A stretch of 59,008 nt of DNA from Planctomycetia bacterium. Its GTDB lineage: Bacteria; Planctomycetota; Planctomycetia; Pirellulales; UBA1268. The stretch spans positions 1 through 59,008 of the forward strand of contig JBAXUY010000005.1 of assembly GCA_037129475.1 (NCBI GenBank), in the 5' to 3' direction. Numbering within the stretch: position 1 is the stretch's first letter; each line of letters opens with the position of its first letter. The notes under the pieces are model-generated. The model searched no databases and was not told where the DNA came from. It saw nothing but the letters and a program-made list of their open reading frames with translations. The translations under genes were made by a program, and so were the position numbers. Positions 9,304 through 25,558 of this stretch are shown one piece after another.

Positions 9304-9377
<74 letters not shown>

Positions 9378-9387
9378 AAAAACCGAA

Positions 9388-9461
9388 TGCGCGCGCCAAG
9401 ATTCGAACTTGGGACCTCTACCTTATCAGGGTAGCGCTCTAACCAACTGAGCTACGCGCGC
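9388..9461 (-). tRNA. tRNA-Ile (anticodon GAT)
   Basis: The reverse complement is GCGCGCGTAGCTCAGTTGGTTAGAGCGCTACCCTGATAAGGTAGAGGTCCCAAGTTCGAATCTTGGCGCGCGCA. The anticodon loop is CTGATAA and the arms are canonical. Confidence 0.95.
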
Positions 9462-17740: not shown

Positions 17741-17814
17741 GGGCGGCTAGCTCAGTTGGTTAGAGCGCTACGTTCACACCGTAGAGGTCACAGGTTCGAA
17801 TCCTGTGCCGCCCA
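17741..17814 (+). tRNA. tRNA-Val (anticodon CAC)
   Basis: GGGCGGCTAGCTCAGTTGGTTAGAGCGCTACGTTCACACCGTAGAGGTCACAGGTTCGAATCCTGTGCCGCCCA has a 7-bp acceptor stem, anticodon loop TTCACAC and the T-loop GGTTCGAATCC. Confidence 0.95.
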
Positions 17815-17901
17815 CTGGATGGTTGAGTGCTGAAAAGACGAATCAAAGCTACCTGCCCGCGGTGGGCAGTGCCTTCGGGATGCGGCTGAAAGCGCGGCAT
17901 T
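17778..17901 (+). repeat. Left copy of the ~124-nt imperfect direct repeat (tRNA-Val 3' half plus downstream element)
   Basis: It aligns with 25435-25558. The first 38 nt have 3 mismatches, followed by a 35-nt unrelated spacer of identical length, then about 52 nt at roughly 80% identity. Confidence 0.7.
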
Positions 17902-18180: not shown

Positions 18181-18388
18181 CCTGCCGAGCGATTCATTCC
18201 GCTCTGGAAAGACGGCGAGCGGCTGGGACACATGGCCGAAAGCGCGGCGTTCTGAGGCGGCAGTGAGCCGCTATTTGCCGCTGCAACGGCCGCCATGCCC
18301 CAAGGTTGTCCCTGTCGTCTGGACAGTGGAAGGACTGCTCTCTGCAATAGAGGGGTATGCTCCCCAAACAACAGGTGAGAACCAGCGC

Positions 18389-19753
18389 ATGAGTGAGGGT
18401 AAGTCGAAGACGGGACTGCTGAATTGGCTCGGTAAGGCCGTCAGCGGAGTGCTTGATCCCGACAGGGAGGCTCGGCTCCAGGAGTATGTTGCCAAAGTTG
18501 ATGCCGAGATCAGTCGGCTTCGCCACGACTTTGACTTCTCGAAGACCGTTGCTCGTCTCGATATGGCTCCAAGCGACGAGCCGCTTGTTGCGGAGCGTCT
18601 GTACCGACAGTTTCTAGAACGAGCGTGGAAAGATCAGCAGATCACAGCCCGCGAGATCGAGTTGCTCGCGTGGGTCGCCGGTGCCCTGGAGTTGGAAGAC
18701 GGTGTTGTAGCGCGGCTCAACTATGAGTTCGCAGCAGCCAGGTTCCGTAGGGCGTTCGCTCAGGCGATGTCCGACGGCCGCGTGGACGAAGCAGAGGCGG
18801 CGCGGCTCCAGGCGATAGCGAGCGGCTGTGGCCAGACTGTCGGCGGCCTTGTTTCGCACTTCTTCAAGGCCGACGGTGAGCCGCTGCTTCGGAGCATATT
18901 CAGCGGCCTCGCCATGGATGGGCAAATCGACAAGGCCGAGTGGCAATCGTTCCAAGAGACTGTGGAAAGGCTGGGCGTGCCGCGCGAGTTGGTGCTGCAG
19001 GCCATTCAAACCCCAGCGCATCAACTGGTTGAACATGCGCTGGCTGATGCACGTGTCGACGGGGAAATCTCTGAGAACGAGGAGCGGGGTATCGAGTGGC
19101 TTCTTCGAAACGTCGTAGGCGACACGCCATTCGCGGCCTACGTTCGGAAGGAGATCGCCGAGGCAAAGGAAATGCAGGCCCTTCAAAAAGGCGTTCTGCA
19201 GAGTGTTGCTGCCCCACCAGGCACGGCTCTACGTGCAGGTGAGATCGTGCACTGGTTTGGGCCAGCCAAGTACGTGCGCAAACGTGAACTCGCGAGCGGC
19301 ATCAAGTTCGACGAAGTGGATGGGGAACTGGTCATCACGGACACGAGGACGATCCTCAACGCCCAGGAGAAGTCCCTCGAACTGAACCACCGAAAAGTTT
19401 TAGCGCACGTGCCGTTTGGTGATGGAATCGAGATTCGATGCGGCGGCAAGGGGAGCGGTCACTACATTTTTGCTCGCGATGGCGAACGTGCAGTCCCCAT
19501 ATGGCAGGTTGCGATTAGTCGTGCGAATCAAACGATCGTCGCATCCGATGATAAAGCAGCGCGGCGGCGAATTTCCCGCGAAGTGAGACAGCGCGTGTGG
19601 CAGCGGTATGGGGGGCGGTGCGCGGAGTGTCAGGCGGACACGTACCTCGAGTTCGACCATATAGTGCCGGTCGCCAAGGGTGGCAGTAATTCCGACACGA
19701 ACGTGCAACTACTTTGCCGGAAGTGCAACCTCGCCAAGAGCGACAACATCTGA
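18389..19753 (+). CDS. TerB-like repeat / PH-like / HNH endonuclease protein
   Basis: There are four helical repeats with the TerB-type signature (DQQITAREIELLAWVAGALEL; DGRVDEAEAARLQAIASGCG; DGQIDKAEWQSFQETVERLGV; DGEISENEERGIEWLLRNV). A bacterial-PH-like beta segment follows (GEIVHWFGPAKYVRKRE...DGELVITDTRTIL...IEIRCGG). The C-terminus is an HNH domain (CAECQADTYLEFDHIVPVAKGGSNSDTNVQLLCRKCNLAKS). The start ATG 18389 is preceded by AGGTGA; the ORF-track start at 18263 is a GTG. Confidence 0.8.
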   Translation: MSEGKSKTGLLNWLGKAVSGVLDPDREARLQEYVAKVDAEISRLRHDFDFSKTVARLDMAPSDEPLVAERLYRQFLERAWKDQQITAREIELLAWVAGALELEDGVVARLNYEFAAARFRRAFAQAMSDGRVDEAEAARLQAIASGCGQTVGGLVSHFFKADGEPLLRSIFSGLAMDGQIDKAEWQSFQETVERLGVPRELVLQAIQTPAHQLVEHALADARVDGEISENEERGIEWLLRNVVGDTPFAAYVRKEIAEAKEMQALQKGVLQSVAAPPGTALRAGEIVHWFGPAKYVRKRELASGIKFDEVDGELVITDTRTILNAQEKSLELNHRKVLAHVPFGDGIEIRCGGKGSGHYIFARDGERAVPIWQVAISRANQTIVASDDKAARRRISREVRQRVWQRYGGRCAECQADTYLEFDHIVPVAKGGSNSDTNVQLLCRKCNLAKSDNI

Positions 19754-22700
19754 TGAAGGTTGGCATGCGTTTCGAACAGATCGAATTCATCATCCGCCGT
19801 GACGCCGATGGGACGAGTTTCGGACGCGATTTCGAGTGGCTGTGTAAGTGGTACCTGGAGAACGCTCCGCTGTACCGCGGCAAGTTCCGGAAGGTCTGGC
19901 GATGGGACGAGTGGCCGGATCGCTGGGGCCGTGACTGCGGTATCGACCTCATTGCGGAGACAATTGACGGCGAACTGTGGGCCGTTCAGTGCAAGGCGGT
20001 GTCGCCAGAGCACGCCGTCACGAAGGCTGAAATCGACTCGTTCCTCTCTGAATCCAATCGAAAGCAGATCGCTTACCGGCTGCTGATCGCGACAACCGAC
20101 AACATCGGGACGAACGCCCTGCGAACCATCGAGAACCAGGCGAGGCACGCATCTGTCGTGCTGCGGGGTGACCTGGTTACGGCGGAGGTCGATTGGCCCA
20201 GCAAAATCGGCGGCACTGCTCTGAAGCCGCCACGCTGGAAGCCTCTCCCCCATCAGCGGGCAGCGATCAGCGACGTCCTGGCGGGCTTCAAAAAACACGA
20301 GCGCGGCCGCCTCATCATGGCCTGCGGCACCGGCAAGACGCTGACGGGCCTCTTGATCAGCGAAGCCGTCGGTAGCCAGCGCACGTTGTTGCTGGTTCCG
20401 TCGATCAGTCTGGCCCAGCAGAACCTGAAAGAATGGGGCCGCCACGCGAAGGAGGATTTCGATTGCCTGGTCGTGTGCTCCGACGAGACGGTGGCAAGCG
20501 ACCGCGACGATCCCGCGTTGCGATACGTCGCCGACCTGGGGATCAGGCCGACGACCAACCCGAAAGAGATAGCCGCATTCTTATCGAAGCGGCGAAGCCG
20601 ACCCGCCCTGGTGATCTCGACCTACCAATCCTGTGAGCGCGTCTCACGGGGGCAGTCGATGGCGAAGAAGTGGTTTGATCTCGCGCTCTGCGACGAGGCT
20701 CACCGGCTTGTCGGCCATTCGGACAGCCAGTTCGCCACGGTGCTGCACGACAAAAAGATCCGCGCCCGTCGCCGGTTGTTCATGACGGCCACACCCCGCT
20801 ACTTCACGCAGCGGGCAAAGGAGCGCGGCGCGGAGCAGGACATCGAATTGGTATCGATGGATGACGAGACGAAGTTCGGCCCCGAGTTCCACGTGCTCAC
20901 CTTCCACGAGGGGATCACGGCCAAGCCGGAGCCGTTGCTGACCGATTACCAGGTAGTCGTGATCGGCGTAACCAACGCAGAAGCGAAGGCGTGGGCCGCA
21001 GACGCGAAACTCATTCGCACGAAGGATGGCCTCGAAACCGATGCCAGGACGCTCGCCTCGCAGATCGGGCTCGCGAAGGCGATGAAGCAATATGATCTCA
21101 CGCGGATGATCACGTTCCATCGGTCGATCCGCAGGGCGTCGCGGTTCGTCGATGGCGAGCGTCGTGATTCACTGCCCGCCGTGATCGCGAAGATGCGGCC
21201 CGAAAACCAGCCCGCAGGCCGACTATGGGCGACACACGTTTCCGGCGAAACAGCGGCCAGCAAACGGGCCTCACTCCTGAAGGAACTTGGAGACTTGCCA
21301 AAAGGCACGTGCGGGCTGATTTCGAATTGCGCGTGCCTGGGGGAAGGCGTTGATGTTCCTGCCCTCGACGGCGTGGCCTTCATCGACCCGAAGGGTTCGA
21401 TGGTGGACATCATTCAGGCCGTCGGCCGCGTGATCCGCAAATCGCCCGACAAAAAGATCGGCACCATCGTCATCCCCGTATTCGTAGACGAGTCGGAGGA
21501 CGCCGATCACGCACTTAAAAACTCCGCTTTCGATCCCGTGTGGCAGGTGCTCAAGGCACTACGTGCCCACGACCGGCGGCTCGCCGACGAACTGGACGGA
21601 TTGCGGACTTCGCTGGGGAAGCAGGCCGGTGGCGGGAGGCGAATCAAACTTCCCTCGAATGTCGTGCTTGATGTGCCACGGCTGTTGCTCCAGGACTTCG
21701 AGCAGGCGTTCTACGTCCGGGCTGTGAAGGCAGCCACAGAGAAGCCCGCGTTAACCGTTGAACAGATTCTGCAATGGGCCGACGAATGGAAACTAAGGAC
21801 AGGAGACTGGCCGAATGCCAAGTCTGGGGCCATACCTGACACGCAAGAGACGTGGGCAGGCATAGCCCACGCGCTGAATCGTGGGCACCGTGGACTAAAC
21901 GCGAGTCGCTGTTCCCTGCCGCAGTTCCTGCACGACTTCCGAGGTGTTCGCAACAGAGCGGGCCTGGGGATGCTTGCCGAAGAGCAGATCCTCGAATGGG
22001 CAGATCGCTACTTTGAGCATCACAGTTCGTGGCCCACCCACTCGTCTGGGGATATACCCGAAACATATGACACATGGGCCGGTGTTAGTGTCGCCCTCCG
22101 AAACGGCGCTCGCGGGCTACCTCGGCAAATAACGCTGGCAAACCTTCTCTGGGAGAAGCGGGGAGTTCCTAACAGGGCAAACCGTCCGCGGTTGTCTATC
22201 GAACAGATTTTGAGGTGGAGCGACGATCACAAACGGCGGACGGGAGATTGGCCCGATCAAACCTCCGGGCAGGTTTATGGCACAACCGAGACCTGGGGAG
22301 GCATTCAAGTCGCGCTCAACGGTGGAAAACGTGGGCTCCGCGGCAAATCGTCAATTCGGCTCCTACTGCATGAGCACCGCGGAGTCCCTCACTTAAGGCG
22401 CCAGCCGCGACTGTCTGTGCCTCTGATTCTGAGGTGGGCTGATGACTACCATCGCATGACTGGGCGGTGGCCGAAGAACAAAAAAACTTCTGACAAAATC
22501 TCAGGAACAGATGACAGTTGGGCCAGCATCGACGCTGCTCTCCGCGCAGGAAGACGCGGCCTGCGCAAGTCGTCGCTCGCGGACTTGCTCGAGAAGCGTC
22601 GTGGCGTCAGAAACCATCTAAAGGCTCGGCCACTTACGTTAAAACAGATTCTGAGATGGGCAGATCGGCATAGAAGAAAGACCGGTGAATGGCCCATCGC

Positions 22701-23496
22701 GGAATCCGGCCAGATCATAGGGGCCAGAGGCGAGAAATGGTCGAGCGTGCAGGCGGCTCTTTCGCAGGGCACGCGCGACCTTCCCGGAGGTGACTCGCTG
22801 TCTCGCTTACTCGCGCGTGAACGTGGCGTCCGCAACCGACTCGACACCCCGAAACTAACGGTTCGCAGGATTCTCGCGTGGGCTGATGCGCACCACCAGA
22901 ATCATGGCGACTGGCCAACTGTCGGTGATCGCCGTGATCCTGCTGCAGGAGAGAATTGGAACGCCATTAATGCGGCTCTTGAGCGCGGATCCCGCGGTCT
23001 ACCGGGGGGCAGTTCCTTGGCGACTTTGCTGGCTGAAAAGCGAGGGGTGCGTCGCGGCCGTCATGCCCAGAGGCTCACGGTAAACATGATCGCCAAATGG
23101 GCGAAAGCGCATCACAGGCGCACGGGCAAATGGCCGACGTTGAGTTCCGGTTTAGTCCACGGCACAAACGAGCGATGGAATAATTTGGATCAGTTGTTGG
23201 CCAAGGGGCTCCGCGGTTTACCTGGCGGTCAAAGACTGGCCAACGTTCTTGCGGATCACTGCGGAGTTCGCAACCACCTGAACATTTCCGACCTGTCGGT
23301 GAAGCAATTATTGGTGTGGGCCGATGAGCACCATGCCCGGAATGGAACCTTTCCGACCAAGGACTCGGGCCCCGTTTTCGGAACCGAGGAGAACTGGTCG
23401 AAAATTGATACCTCGTTAAGGGCTGGGAATCGCGGACTTCCCGGCGGCTCATCGCTCGCCAAGTTGCTGGATCGGCATCGACGAGGCAGGGATTAA
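19753..23496 (+). CDS. Mrr-type PD-(D/E)xK nuclease + SF2 DEAH helicase + 8x ~73-aa C-terminal repeat protein (1247 aa)
   Basis: The N-terminus has GRDCGIDLIAETIDGELWAVQCKA (Mrr_cat-like D...QxK). Helicase motifs are I MACGTGKTLTG, II LCDEAHRL, III FMTATPR, V/VI GEGVDVPALDGVAFIDP...QAVGRVIRK. Eight tandem repeats follow. The start ATG 19753 overlaps the upstream stop (TGATG). Confidence 0.85.
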   Translation: MKVGMRFEQIEFIIRRDADGTSFGRDFEWLCKWYLENAPLYRGKFRKVWRWDEWPDRWGRDCGIDLIAETIDGELWAVQCKAVSPEHAVTKAEIDSFLSESNRKQIAYRLLIATTDNIGTNALRTIENQARHASVVLRGDLVTAEVDWPSKIGGTALKPPRWKPLPHQRAAISDVLAGFKKHERGRLIMACGTGKTLTGLLISEAVGSQRTLLLVPSISLAQQNLKEWGRHAKEDFDCLVVCSDETVASDRDDPALRYVADLGIRPTTNPKEIAAFLSKRRSRPALVISTYQSCERVSRGQSMAKKWFDLALCDEAHRLVGHSDSQFATVLHDKKIRARRRLFMTATPRYFTQRAKERGAEQDIELVSMDDETKFGPEFHVLTFHEGITAKPEPLLTDYQVVVIGVTNAEAKAWAADAKLIRTKDGLETDARTLASQIGLAKAMKQYDLTRMITFHRSIRRASRFVDGERRDSLPAVIAKMRPENQPAGRLWATHVSGETAASKRASLLKELGDLPKGTCGLISNCACLGEGVDVPALDGVAFIDPKGSMVDIIQAVGRVIRKSPDKKIGTIVIPVFVDESEDADHALKNSAFDPVWQVLKALRAHDRRLADELDGLRTSLGKQAGGGRRIKLPSNVVLDVPRLLLQDFEQAFYVRAVKAATEKPALTVEQILQWADEWKLRTGDWPNAKSGAIPDTQETWAGIAHALNRGHRGLNASRCSLPQFLHDFRGVRNRAGLGMLAEEQILEWADRYFEHHSSWPTHSSGDIPETYDTWAGVSVALRNGARGLPRQITLANLLWEKRGVPNRANRPRLSIEQILRWSDDHKRRTGDWPDQTSGQVYGTTETWGGIQVALNGGKRGLRGKSSIRLLLHEHRGVPHLRRQPRLSVPLILRWADDYHRMTGRWPKNKKTSDKISGTDDSWASIDAALRAGRRGLRKSSLADLLEKRRGVRNHLKARPLTLKQILRWADRHRRKTGEWPIAESGQIIGARGEKWSSVQAALSQGTRDLPGGDSLSRLLARERGVRNRLDTPKLTVRRILAWADAHHQNHGDWPTVGDRRDPAAGENWNAINAALERGSRGLPGGSSLATLLAEKRGVRRGRHAQRLTVNMIAKWAKAHHRRTGKWPTLSSGLVHGTNERWNNLDQLLAKGLRGLPGGQRLANVLADHCGVRNHLNISDLSVKQLLVWADEHHARNGTFPTKDSGPVFGTEENWSKIDTSLRAGNRGLPGGSSLAKLLDRHRRGRD
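21751..23493 (+). repeat. Eight in-frame tandem coding repeats (period 219-222 nt, ~73 aa)
   Basis: Repeat starts are at 21751, 21973, 22192, 22411, 22633, 22855, 23074 and 23293. The approximate consensus is L[ST]VxQIL.WAD.H..RTG.WP...SG.I.G..E.W..I..AL..G.RGLPGGSSLA.LL...RGVRN. The copies are divergent at the DNA level. Confidence 0.85.
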
Positions 23497-23502
23497 CTGG
23501 TC

Positions 23503-24189
23503 ATGCGACTGGTCGGCTGGAATGCCAACTACAACAACCATCCGCGCACCTTCGAAGAAAACGTCGCCCTCCTGGAGCCGTTCAAGGCCGACGTGCTGGT
23601 GATCTGTGAGACCGCGCCGCCGCAGCCTGGTGGTCGGGCGTTCTTCGTGGGCGGTTCGCCTGGGCTGGCCGTTGTGGCCCCTGATGGCATCGAGATCCAG
23701 CCGCACCCGATGAACGACGGTGCGCCGCCGCTGTTTGCCGGATTTCGTGTTGCTGGGCCTCTGGCGTTCGATCTGCTGGCGACCTGGCCCGTCAGCCGAA
23801 AGGGTATGCCCTCCTACCACGAGGTGCTGATGGCGTCCCTGGGGCGATACGCCGACTTCTGGGCGGCTGGTCGCGCGGTGATGCTGGGTGACTTCAATTC
23901 GAGCACCCGGGTCGGCAGCCAGAAGCGGTCACATCCGGTGTTCGTCCAGGCCGCTCTGGATCGCGGGCTCGTGAGCGCGTACCACGAGCAGACAGGCGAG
24001 AGCCACGGCGAGGAAACCGTGTCGACGTACCTCCACGGCAATGGTGCGGAGTTTCACGTGGACTACGGCTTCGTGTCGCAGCCGCTCGTCGAGTCAGTCC
24101 GCTGCCGGATTCCCGACGAGCCGCGATGGTTCGAGATCGGCGATCACCGGCCGATCGTCTTGGATATCGACGAGGCCGTGGGAGAGTGA
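23503..24189 (+). CDS. Endonuclease/exonuclease/phosphatase (EEP) family protein
   Basis: MRLVGWNANY..., ...ADVLVICET..., ...VMLGDFNSS..., ...EIGDHRPIVLDI follow the EEP (ExoIII/DNase I-like) motif order. It starts 6 nt after the helicase stop. Confidence 0.7.
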   Translation: MRLVGWNANYNNHPRTFEENVALLEPFKADVLVICETAPPQPGGRAFFVGGSPGLAVVAPDGIEIQPHPMNDGAPPLFAGFRVAGPLAFDLLATWPVSRKGMPSYHEVLMASLGRYADFWAAGRAVMLGDFNSSTRVGSQKRSHPVFVQAALDRGLVSAYHEQTGESHGEETVSTYLHGNGAEFHVDYGFVSQPLVESVRCRIPDEPRWFEIGDHRPIVLDIDEAVGE

Positions 24190-24286: not shown

Positions 24287-24416
24287 ATTTTCGGCACCGA
24301 CGGGCTGGGTGATCGTATGCGGCTGGTAGTCTGCAGGGGGCTTCGTGCCGCCGCGCGTCACGCGTGGCGGACGACGCCCCCGTGCGCCAGCAATCCAGAG
24401 TTTTCCGCCCCATCCT

Positions 24417-25073
24417 ATGAAAGAGACAGCAATGCGAAGTAGACGTTTGCCGGAAATGTTATCCGCCGTGCGATGCATCGTCGTCATGGCGATCGTGGTC
24501 GCTTCCGTCCTAAGCGCCTGCGCGGCAATCGCCGCATCGACGACAAACTTTTTACTCGAGGCAGCCGACGGCGGCGCCAAGTCGCGACTGTCATGGACAT
24601 TCGGAGATGGCTGGCTTTCGCCCTCGGGCGTCGAGACAAAAACCATGACCTACCTTGGCACATTTGGCGCGGGGGCGATCGATCCCACCTTCGTCTCGGG
24701 GACGTTCGCCGTCAGCGGTGCCGGTTCGTACAACAACATCACCACGGGATCCTCCTTTCAGATAACTAACCTCGGGTTCACGCAGATGAACACGTCTGAT
24801 CTGTTCATCAGCTTGATGCAGACACAAAGCGTTCTTGTCTCCGGCTCAGGCCAGTTCGTCTCATACACGCCAGGGACTGATTCGTTTGTGGTCGACATCC
24901 CGTTTTCGAAGTTCGTTCCGGGTATCTATGCGATCAACAACGGGGTGTCGACACCGCCGACCCCGCAGACGTTGACGATCACCGCCGTGCCCGAGCCATG
25001 GACGTGGGTGATGGCTACGGGCGGGTTCGCCTATGCAGCATTTGAAATGTTCCGGCGCCGCAGGCGGGCCTGA
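24417..25073 (+). CDS. Secreted PEP-CTERM-anchored protein (island cargo)
   Basis: It has a signal/TM region (VRCIVVMAIVVASVLSACAAIAAS), and its C-terminus is AVPEPWTWVMATGGFAYAAFEMFRRRRRA. An alternative start is MRSRRL at 24432. Confidence 0.75.
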   Translation: MKETAMRSRRLPEMLSAVRCIVVMAIVVASVLSACAAIAASTTNFLLEAADGGAKSRLSWTFGDGWLSPSGVETKTMTYLGTFGAGAIDPTFVSGTFAVSGAGSYNNITTGSSFQITNLGFTQMNTSDLFISLMQTQSVLVSGSGQFVSYTPGTDSFVVDIPFSKFVPGIYAINNGVSTPPTPQTLTITAVPEPWTWVMATGGFAYAAFEMFRRRRRA

Positions 25074-25134: not shown

Positions 25135-25434
25135 GCTCGTTTGTGGGCTGACCGCGAGCCGGTGCCGCCGTGGGAATGGTGGGCGGGCGGGGCGCCAGCC
25201 GGCGGGTAGGCGAATCCTGTCTACATCACTCGACCCCCGCCCTGCCCCGCAGTCGCAGCGGCTCACGCTGGGCCAGAACATCCCCGCTTCCCCGCTTCTG
25301 AATGGTGGAGTGTGTTTTTTCAGTGGAAAGCGGGGAAAGTGTTGCTTCTGTTGTCGGCCTTCGAAAGGGCTGATATTCTCGTTGCAAACCGTCATTTCGA
25401 CGGCACGGAAGTGCGTGTCTGAAGGTTGGTTCCC

Positions 25435-25558
25435 ACCGTAGAGGCCGCAGGTTCGAATCCTGTGCTGCCCACTCGGTCGAAAGACCTTGTTTTGCAGGAG
25501 AGACGCGACCTGCCCTCGCTGGGCGGCGCCCTCGGGATGCGACTGAACGCGGGGCATT
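25435..25558 (+). repeat. Right copy of the direct repeat (decayed tRNA-Val 3' fragment plus downstream element)
   Basis: accgtagaggccgcaggttcgaatcctgtgctgcccac is followed by a 35-nt spacer and a homologous 52 nt. The upstream ..gaaggttggtt|ccc| looks like a D-arm remnant joined directly to the variable/T-arm region, i.e. the anticodon arm is missing. Confidence 0.7.

Follow-up and report, generated by a model that had tools for sequence, protein, structure and literature searches.

The closest known kinds to the protein described here are the little-studied helicase-associated (HA) repeat, for its repeated module, and the Type ISP restriction architecture, here without methylase, for the enzyme. 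The Pfam entry of the HA repeat, PF03457, predicts three helices. The solved HA structure was obtained by nuclear magnetic resonance (2kta, residues 627–691 of BVU_0683). HA binds DNA according to the title of Mills et al. 2013, which a 2025 preprint cites with the words "previously shown to bind DNA" (PMC12191111); that preprint also lists HA domains among the C-terminal fusions of PLD nucleases. Type ISP enzymes recognize a site, then translocate along DNA and cleave it (PMC4666363, PMC3553950). Two of them, LlaBIII and LlaGI, are given as more than 95% identical over their first three domains, the target-recognition domain (TRD) excepted (PMC3553950). The window analyzed here is a stretch of 59,008 nucleotides from a Planctomycetia bacterium (GCA_037129475.1, contig JBAXUY010000005.1). 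It contains a gene (19753–23496, forward strand) encoding an Mrr-type nuclease, a superfamily 2 (SF2) motor, and an array of eight tandem units. The core resembles that of Type ISP enzymes, and the array has been exchanged INDEPENDENTLY of the motor. With modest confidence for the composite of all its steps, the protein is read as a restriction-like nuclease-translocase without methylase, carrying a swappable DNA-recognition array.

The open reading frame (ORF) was listed as 19714–23496 on the forward strand, encoding 1260 residues from a TTG codon at 19714, and residue numbers are counted from 19714 throughout. The true start is probably the ATG at 19753 rather than this TTG, because the upstream TGA (19751–19753) overlaps the in-frame ATG (TGATG) and the alignments of orthologues open near residue 20. 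The Mrr-type PD-(D/E)xK nuclease domain consists of residues 50–162 (19861–20199; PF13156 Mrr_cat_2, E = 4.6e-34, and alignment to 4xqk_A). The SF2 helicase-like double-stranded DNA translocase follows (residues 176–637; 20239–21624), identified by PF04851 and PF00271 and by matches to LlaBIII, LlaGI, and PADLOC models. The motifs GTGKT, DEAH, TATP, and QAVGR are all found in it. The Pfam matches of the full protein (ResIII, DEAD, and Helicase_C) span residues 176–580. Nothing credible was found by Pfam C-terminal of residue 580, and PF03457 was absent from the matches at E ≤ 1. A match to PF22022 at residues 811–852 (E = 0.0026, below the cut-off) was taken as chance.

Residues 37–637 align to residues 34–662 of LlaBIII (4xqk) with an E-value of 3e-82. 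LlaGI (5ffj) also aligns to the motor (E = 3e-61), and the PADLOC model REase_MTase_IIG is matched over positions 23–644 of 1646 (E = 3e-147). LlaBIII shares with the window protein the nuclease signature GxDL...QxK and helicase motifs I, II, III, and VI. Judged by sequence, the Mrr nuclease and SF2 translocase core of Type ISP enzymes makes up the first ~640 residues: in a single chain, an N-terminal Mrr nuclease precedes an SF2 double-stranded DNA translocase, with ~600 alignable residues and intact catalytic motifs. The earlier note on this DNA had described an Mrr-SF2 helicase with a C-terminal array, and both the Pfam domains and the alignments to LlaBIII and LlaGI bear this out. Beyond this point the window protein differs from Type ISP enzymes, as it has no coupler, methyltransferase, or TRD, and carries the eight-unit array instead. 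No methyltransferase family was matched in the 1260-residue protein. A C-terminal target-recognition domain of the Type I or ISP kind is likewise absent, the LlaBIII alignment stopping at residue 637 and the rest consisting of units. As the motor is followed by a 42-residue linker (21625–21750) and the eight units, the first of which begins at residue 680, the array occupies the position of the Type ISP methyltransferase and target-recognition parts. The DNA-recognition part holds this position in the Type ISP template, according to PMC4666363.

Residues 680–1260 consist of the eight units throughout and of nothing else. Unit 1 comprises residues 680–753 (21751–21972), unit 2 residues 754–826 (21973–22191), unit 3 residues 827–899 (22192–22410), and unit 4 residues 900–973 (22411–22632). 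They are followed by unit 5 (residues 974–1047; 22633–22854), unit 6 (1048–1120; 22855–23073), unit 7 (1121–1193; 23074–23292), and a shortened unit 8 (1194–1260; 23293–23493) that is directly followed by the stop codon (23494–23496). All are on the forward strand. The units are 73–74 residues long, except the last one with 67, and their alignment is nearly gapless. The earlier note had placed eight tandem units at these starts; all are in frame with the ORF, and each is one complete domain according to a hidden Markov model (HMM) of the unit. As this HMM was built from the units themselves, a leave-one-out test was added. Each held-out unit scored 80–96 bits against the HMM of the other seven, and 200 shuffles per unit scored at most 11 bits. 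When the six-frame translation of the window was searched with the unit HMM, no ninth copy was found beyond the eight.

The pairwise identity of the units is 36–48% at the protein level (mean 43%) and 43–57% at the codon-threaded nucleotide level (mean 49%). Where residues are identical, the same codon is used in only 21–50% of the cases. The array was not detected in the DNA by Tandem Repeats Finder, the units being too diverged. Because of this divergence of nucleotides and codons and the lack of a DNA-level array, the proposal that the array is old and maintained at the protein level is correct. Some details of the consensus first given for the unit were adjusted. Of three tryptophans described as invariant, two are so (W9 and W38 of the alignment) and the third is replaced by phenylalanine in unit 8. 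The RGL(P/R) turn is general, with the exception of unit 5, where an aspartate replaces the glycine of R-G-L.

Orthologues were searched with the N-terminal 679 residues, and units were then counted in the matches. Most proteins with motors 56–92% identical to that of the window carry 3–7 units of the array module. The C-terminal modules differ at a junction located at residues 663–689 of the orthologues. Six orthologues with motors 59–74% identical (P0317, P0325, P0333, P0355, P0368, and P0374) contain no array unit; instead, six genuine PF03457 units follow the motor at this junction, with scores of 135–455 bits and E-values down to 1e-139. In P0286, the motor of which is 87% identical, and in P0339, an AbiEi_4 winged helix is found at the junction, from residues 666–673. 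P0380 contains, at residues ~690–1035, five tandem units of a different repeat of ~78 residues, with the consensus F.eAR.FVRSLGLK...EW.QYC...KP.DIP..PD..Y...GW...DWLGTG and a faint match to PF14882 ("Integrase repeat unit"). Together, the array, the HA arrays, the AbiEi winged helix, and the PF14882-like repeat amount to at least four types of module grafted at one point of one motor.

The array and the motor do not share the same history. Over 97 orthologues, the identity of the motor and that of the best-matching units to those of the window are uncorrelated (r = 0.09). Eleven of the 14 motors that are at least 87% identical carry arrays at the family background of ~50%, and four or five units at 62% identity or more are shared with the window by some proteins with motors at just 74%. 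Shared blocks are kept at 64–85% identity between genes the motors of which have diverged to 74%. When 583 units were clustered at 70% identity and each array was written as a string of unit types, the arrays appeared as in-register mosaics of unit blocks. The string of the window, from unit 1 to unit 8, is 51-52-17-7-4-32-33-34. It is partly found in P0285 (51-52-17-7-4-x-x), P0275 (17-7-4-32-33-34), and P0279 (x-x-7-4-32-33-34). The core 17-7-4 is set between other types in P0314 (2-1-17-7-4-5-3), the outer types of which enclose yet another core in P0313 and four others (2-1-13-14-15-5-3). Only 1.1% of the unit pairs within arrays are at least 70% identical, so that the units are individually distinct and ordered. 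Homogenized arrays are few (P0349, with seven units of a single type, and P0386). Taken literally, the array is thus poorly conserved among orthologues; the pattern is that of a cassette exchange of intact units, and not of decay. Near-identical motors with differing arrays parallel LlaBIII and LlaGI, near-identical enzymes that differ in their TRD, and Type ISP enzymes likewise combine a conserved motor with a recognition part that diverges (PMC3553950). The identity of the Type ISP core, in which the array replaces the methyltransferase and TRD, and the motor-independent exchange were both absent from the earlier note, and together they favor a role of the array in target recognition.

The structure of the array was predicted with AlphaFold. 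From the single sequence of the whole array, the model was unusable (pLDDT, the predicted local distance difference test, of 36). A model of units 5–7 was calculated with an alignment of 88 three-unit segments from orthologues, and had a mean pLDDT of 94.6 and a pTM (predicted template modelling score) of 0.68. Each unit in it consists of three helices of ~15, 10, and 9 residues with a short β-bridge, and a ten-residue G.RGLPGGSS loop connects helices 2 and 3. The unit is therefore confidently modeled as a three-helix bundle, in agreement with the small helical module that had been anticipated. The invariant positions L1, W9, W20-P21, W35, L42, G45, and L59 form a hydrophobic and aromatic core, and two arginines are conserved (R47, 92%, and R63, 85%). 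The net charge is +39 for the 581 residues of the array and +13 for the 679 residues before it; units of the family carry +3.7 on average. Compared with predicted viral structures using Foldseek, the three-unit model gave a best E-value of 4.7e-3, and the top 14 matches include three SF2 helicases of giant viruses and a phage protein named "Helicase associated domain". These matches, weak but pointed, would back a likeness to HA-type arrays.

Such a charge would also suit a non-specific basic DNA tether or "ruler" that retains the motor or sets the distance from loading to cutting, the variability of the array then resulting from neutral drift and repeat recombination. This alternative would accommodate a copy number that ranges freely from 3 to 14, variable positions distributed over the whole surface of the unit, and homogenized arrays such as that of P0349. 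It fits less well with the conserved identity and order of the units in most arrays, where so few pairs reach 70% identity, and without selection acting on certain units, blocks would hardly be retained at 64–85% identity despite motors at 74%. Moreover, one of the modules found instead of the array at the junction, the AbiEi winged helix, is a domain of a sequence-specific type. The tether is consequently regarded as rather unlikely. As for the nucleic-acid ruler or sensor put forward in the earlier note, a possible sensor is upheld, whereas a ruler is not specifically supported.

Recognition by an array of this kind could also be directed at proteins. In place of nucleic acids, the array would then bind proteins, as a sensor of phage proteins or a dock for partner enzymes, in the manner of repeat sensors in other immune ATPases. 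Protein-recognition receptors, too, typically feature helical tandem repeats that have hypervariable surfaces and undergo cassette exchange, many arrays stand alone, and varied nuclease genes adjoin the enzyme (HNH in the window, SNIPE/T5orf172 in loci L022 and L023). The net charge of +39 speaks against such a platform, as do the positional equivalence with the HA and AbiEi DNA-binding modules and the location of the DNA-recognition part of Type ISP enzymes at this position (PMC4666363). In addition, the fusion partners found for the unit are all DNA enzymes, namely Mrr with the SF2 motor, Mrr alone, or another ResIII helicase. A protein-docking platform, which had also been suggested at first, is not specifically supported, and a role confined to protein binding is considered improbable.

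The relation of the unit to HA was examined further, as a resemblance to HA repeats had been noted from position and spacing. Indeed, HA arrays occupy the identical junction of orthologous motors with a similar period. In three genome loci, from a Rickettsiales metagenome-assembled genome (MAG), an Actinomycetota MAG, and one Planctomycetota MAG, the same motor carries 5–8 HA units. The period of HA on these motors is 67–73 residues, like that of the window array. The likeness thus comprises a small helical unit in 5–8 tandem copies with a period of ~67–73 residues, C-terminal to an Mrr_cat_2 domain and SF2 motor at the same junction. It extends to the layout of the motifs, with a helix ending in hG..(v/W)P, a central tryptophan, G.L, and a final L..(l)G. 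The array unit differs by its extra G.RGLPGGSS loop and by invariant residues of its own, and on motors in genomes it was found in Planctomycetota.

Direct comparison with PF03457 gave no match for any of the eight units, even at E ≤ 10, and the unit HMM did not match the HA arrays; in the positive control, the orthologues P0317 and P0368 scored 134–455 bits against PF03457. When 608 array units were compared with HA units using hhalign, a P-value of 0.0013 and a probability of 18% were obtained over 41 columns, a score that was reached by two of 200 column-permuted controls. A second comparison gave P = 0.0056, and a broader HA profile gave P = 0.015, with 11 of 300 column-permuted controls reaching the score. 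Overall, the probability was 3–18% and the empirical p 0.01–0.04. The register was identical in every run, the glycine after helix 1 and the central tryptophan coinciding. Homology to HA, which the earlier note had left aside, is therefore not established, with no PF03457 match at E ≤ 10 and a profile-profile signal that is suggestive only. A distant homology, while unproven, is plausible and on balance fairly probable from these alignments. It is concluded that the array unit and HA are positional equivalents, and they are probably functional equivalents.

The unit belongs to a large family that is missing from catalogs. The domain had been called unassigned, and this holds, as no unit has a Pfam match at E ≤ 10 and none was found in NCBIfam or among PDB sequences. 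Scans with NCBIfam, PHROGs, and PADLOC yielded nothing credible on the array units, and searches of PDB sequences with 8-row and 88-row unit profiles gave noise or no match. The unit is therefore assigned to no known, well-characterized domain by the profile searches of Pfam, NCBIfam, and the PDB. In contrast, an exhaustive profile search of 1.84 billion representatives retrieved 3,220 clusters (50% identity) at E ≤ 1e-3, including 1,153 at E ≤ 1e-30, with arrays of up to 14 units per protein. Most of the best 150 representatives are stand-alone arrays of 5–13 units. These 150 contain 44 non-repeat segments of at least 60 residues, among which 19 form one cluster similar to the N-terminus of the window protein (Mrr and motor, Mrr alone, or pieces of the motor) and six correspond to a second ResIII helicase without Mrr. 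In two stand-alone arrays, P0169 and P0197, the ~180–220 residues N-terminal of the array contain two Trp-rich motifs, P..FW.d..NRR.YL.WL...LG..., without Pfam match, which may be a further small helical module tied to the arrays.

A family of small proteins, considered from matches of 93–130 residues, was rejected since many are pieces of longer arrays, frameshifted on two long contigs. On these long metagenomic contigs, arrays of 7–9 units are split across frames (L024 4063–5592 and L026 60–1355). These broken arrays would be either decaying pseudogenes or the result of long-read indel errors, and they inflate the count of small members. Among species-representative genomes, array-bearing motors with 4–12 units were found in Planctomycetota MAGs (Pirellulaceae, Pirellulales, Planctomycetaceae, and others). 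All the array-bearing motor orthologues found in genomes are from Planctomycetota, in a scan by alignment that reached close relatives only. The array had no tblastn match in sequenced phages and plasmids.

The gene lies in a region bounded by tRNA sequences. A tRNA-Val(cac) gene is located at 17741–17815, and a direct copy of ~44 nucleotides of its 3′ half is found 7.6 kb downstream (~25429–25472), followed by ~55 nucleotides of similar flanking sequence (to ~25560). The GC content is 0.58–0.63 between the tRNA and its partial copy and 0.67–0.75 outside. The partial tRNA copy and the drop in GC point to a tRNA-flanked genomic island, in which no integrase was seen. No adjacent methyltransferase was found in this island (17.8–25.4 kb) or in eight orthologue loci. 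With no methyltransferase in the protein or nearby, the enzyme is not a restriction-modification enzyme in the strict sense. The neighbors in the eight orthologue loci are variable and comprise genes for a SNIPE/T5orf172 nuclease, PIN, HicA, AbiEii, YhcG, an ImmA/IrrE pair, and Terminase_4, including toxin-antitoxin genes. These neighborhoods are of the mobile or defense type.

This setting bears on whether the protein could be a housekeeping helicase-nuclease for repair or recombination, with the array as a structural accessory and no function in defense. HA is annotated merely as "helicase associated", and the motor has weak matches to RadD and XPB-type repair helicases; restriction enzymes, however, are by far its best matches. 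Neither these restriction-type matches nor a low-GC, tRNA-flanked island, a variable neighborhood of mobile or defense type, and a hypervariable C-terminus are expected of a core repair gene. A housekeeping role is thus held to be highly improbable.

Immediately upstream of the enzyme, on the same strand, a gene (18263–19753) encodes a 496-residue protein with a C-terminal HNH nuclease domain (PF01844, E = 3.8e-11) and a weak match to the PADLOC model PDC-S48 at residues 99–188. Its stop codon overlaps the start of the helicase gene (TGATG), which suggests that the two genes are translationally coupled. As a conserved partner, the HNH protein was rejected, since no homologue was found in 29 fetched loci; in L022 and L023 a SNIPE/T5orf172 nuclease gene takes its place. 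Seven nucleotides downstream of the stop codon of the enzyme, a 228-residue ORF (23503–24189, forward strand) recurs at the same distance from the orthologue in L023 and in L029, an IMG/VR contig (tblastn, 89% to L023 9295–9969 and 68% to L029 3618–4280). It displays only a faint signal of the endonuclease/exonuclease/phosphatase family (PF03372, E = 0.13), and in this sub-lineage its product may act with the enzyme as a partner. A version of the system split into a motor and a separate array subunit was not supported, the motor-only proteins P0383 and P0387 having no adjacent array gene.

Terminase_4, a P27-family small terminase, is encoded a few kilobases from the orthologues in L001 (300–767) and L023 (2241–2732), and the orthologue in L029 is on a viral contig of IMG/VR. 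The gene may be spread by elements resembling prophages or satellites. Also in the island is a 242-residue ORF (24345–25073, forward strand) with an N-terminal hydrophobic segment and a C-terminal tail "VPEP...hydrophobic...RRRR" resembling a PEP-CTERM sorting signal; it has no Pfam family at the cut-off. Elsewhere in the window, adjacent tRNA-Ala(tgc) and tRNA-Ile(gat) genes (9304–9461, reverse strand) are the usual spacer pair of bacterial rRNA operons, and are probably flanked by rRNA genes.

By the lack of a cognate methylase, the enzyme also resembles Type IV systems such as SauUSI and END nucleases, in which a nuclease, with or without helicase, has a variable C-terminal domain thought to select the substrate. 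It differs from them in that the known readers of modification (PUA/SRA/EVE, iEndoIII) were not detected in the window protein, and in that its sensor would be a multi-unit array and not a single domain. In the favored reading, that of a swappable recognition array on a methylase-less nuclease-translocase, the protein would be a single-chain, ATP-driven enzyme made of a Type ISP core and eight basic three-helix modules. The array would hold the enzyme on particular DNA, recognized by its sequence pattern, its modification, or its structure, and would thereby set where the motor loads. Translocation would follow, and then cutting by the Mrr nuclease, as in the Type ISP relatives. As the protein lacks a methyltransferase and no adjacent gene encodes one, the enzyme would act in a Type IV-like or otherwise self-sparing manner; the DNA of the host would be spared by the recognition of a feature that the host lacks, or by other control. 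The enzyme would be carried on the mobile island, and related genes would trade blocks in register, which would renew its specificity. The domains, the class of fold, the charge, the replacement of the array by other DNA-binding modules, and the pattern of recombination are observations, from which DNA binding by the array, its part in specificity, and a function in defense are inferred.

Several points weigh against this reading. Support for DNA binding by the array module itself is indirect, drawn from the charge of +39 and from the HA literature. The profile link to HA is weak, and the arrangement of the units with respect to each other is uncertain at a pTM of 0.68. Foldseek comparison of the three-unit model with the PDB gave nothing significant, the best matches, at E ~1, being sigma factors, TetR, and an AraC-type protein. 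This comparison did not retrieve the HA structure 2kta, and the 220-residue, three-domain query is a poor probe of a 74-residue domain. All three helices and the loops bear variable positions on their surfaces, and no focused recognition patch stands out. Most members of the family are stand-alone arrays without an enzyme, and the role of the module may be broader than target recognition by nucleases. Caution is called for mainly because stand-alone arrays are so abundant and because hypervariable positions do not cluster in one patch. Finally, PADLOC has no model for this architecture, and the putative defense function of the enzyme has no known defense phenotype.

A further elaboration, tentative and rather doubtful, is that the array is an ordered modular reader. 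Each unit would read its own short stretch or feature of DNA, and the string of units would spell a long composite target; planctomycetes would reprogram these methylase-less motors by exchanging blocks in register. Like TALE, PUF, and zinc-finger arrays, the array consists of small tandem helical units with individual identity, conserved order, and exchange of units or blocks. It differs from them in that no kinship of sequence or fold was found, and in that the variability is not confined to one or two "code" residues. Reading of one site by one unit, as in TALE or PUF arrays, is pure conjecture. If the array were such a reader, the enzyme would be a natural nuclease-translocase with a specificity programmable by recombination, and the thousands of stand-alone arrays would be free-standing DNA readers.

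Such motor-independent mosaics of blocks are characteristic of a determinant of specificity that is under pressure to diversify. The literature retrieved yielded no description of a restriction-type motor with a repeat array that is exchanged in register, as cassettes and decoupled from the motor. A large protein module outside Pfam, NCBIfam, and the PDB, with 3,220 clusters and up to 14 copies per protein, now has a confident model of its fold and a testable role. The Type ISP nuclease-motor core circulates without methyltransferase and accepts at least four kinds of C-terminal module at one junction. For the poorly understood HA domain, this provides a functional context, in which it would probably serve restriction-like enzymes in target recognition. 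If the units read DNA in succession, the family would provide a new natural scaffold for modular DNA recognition.

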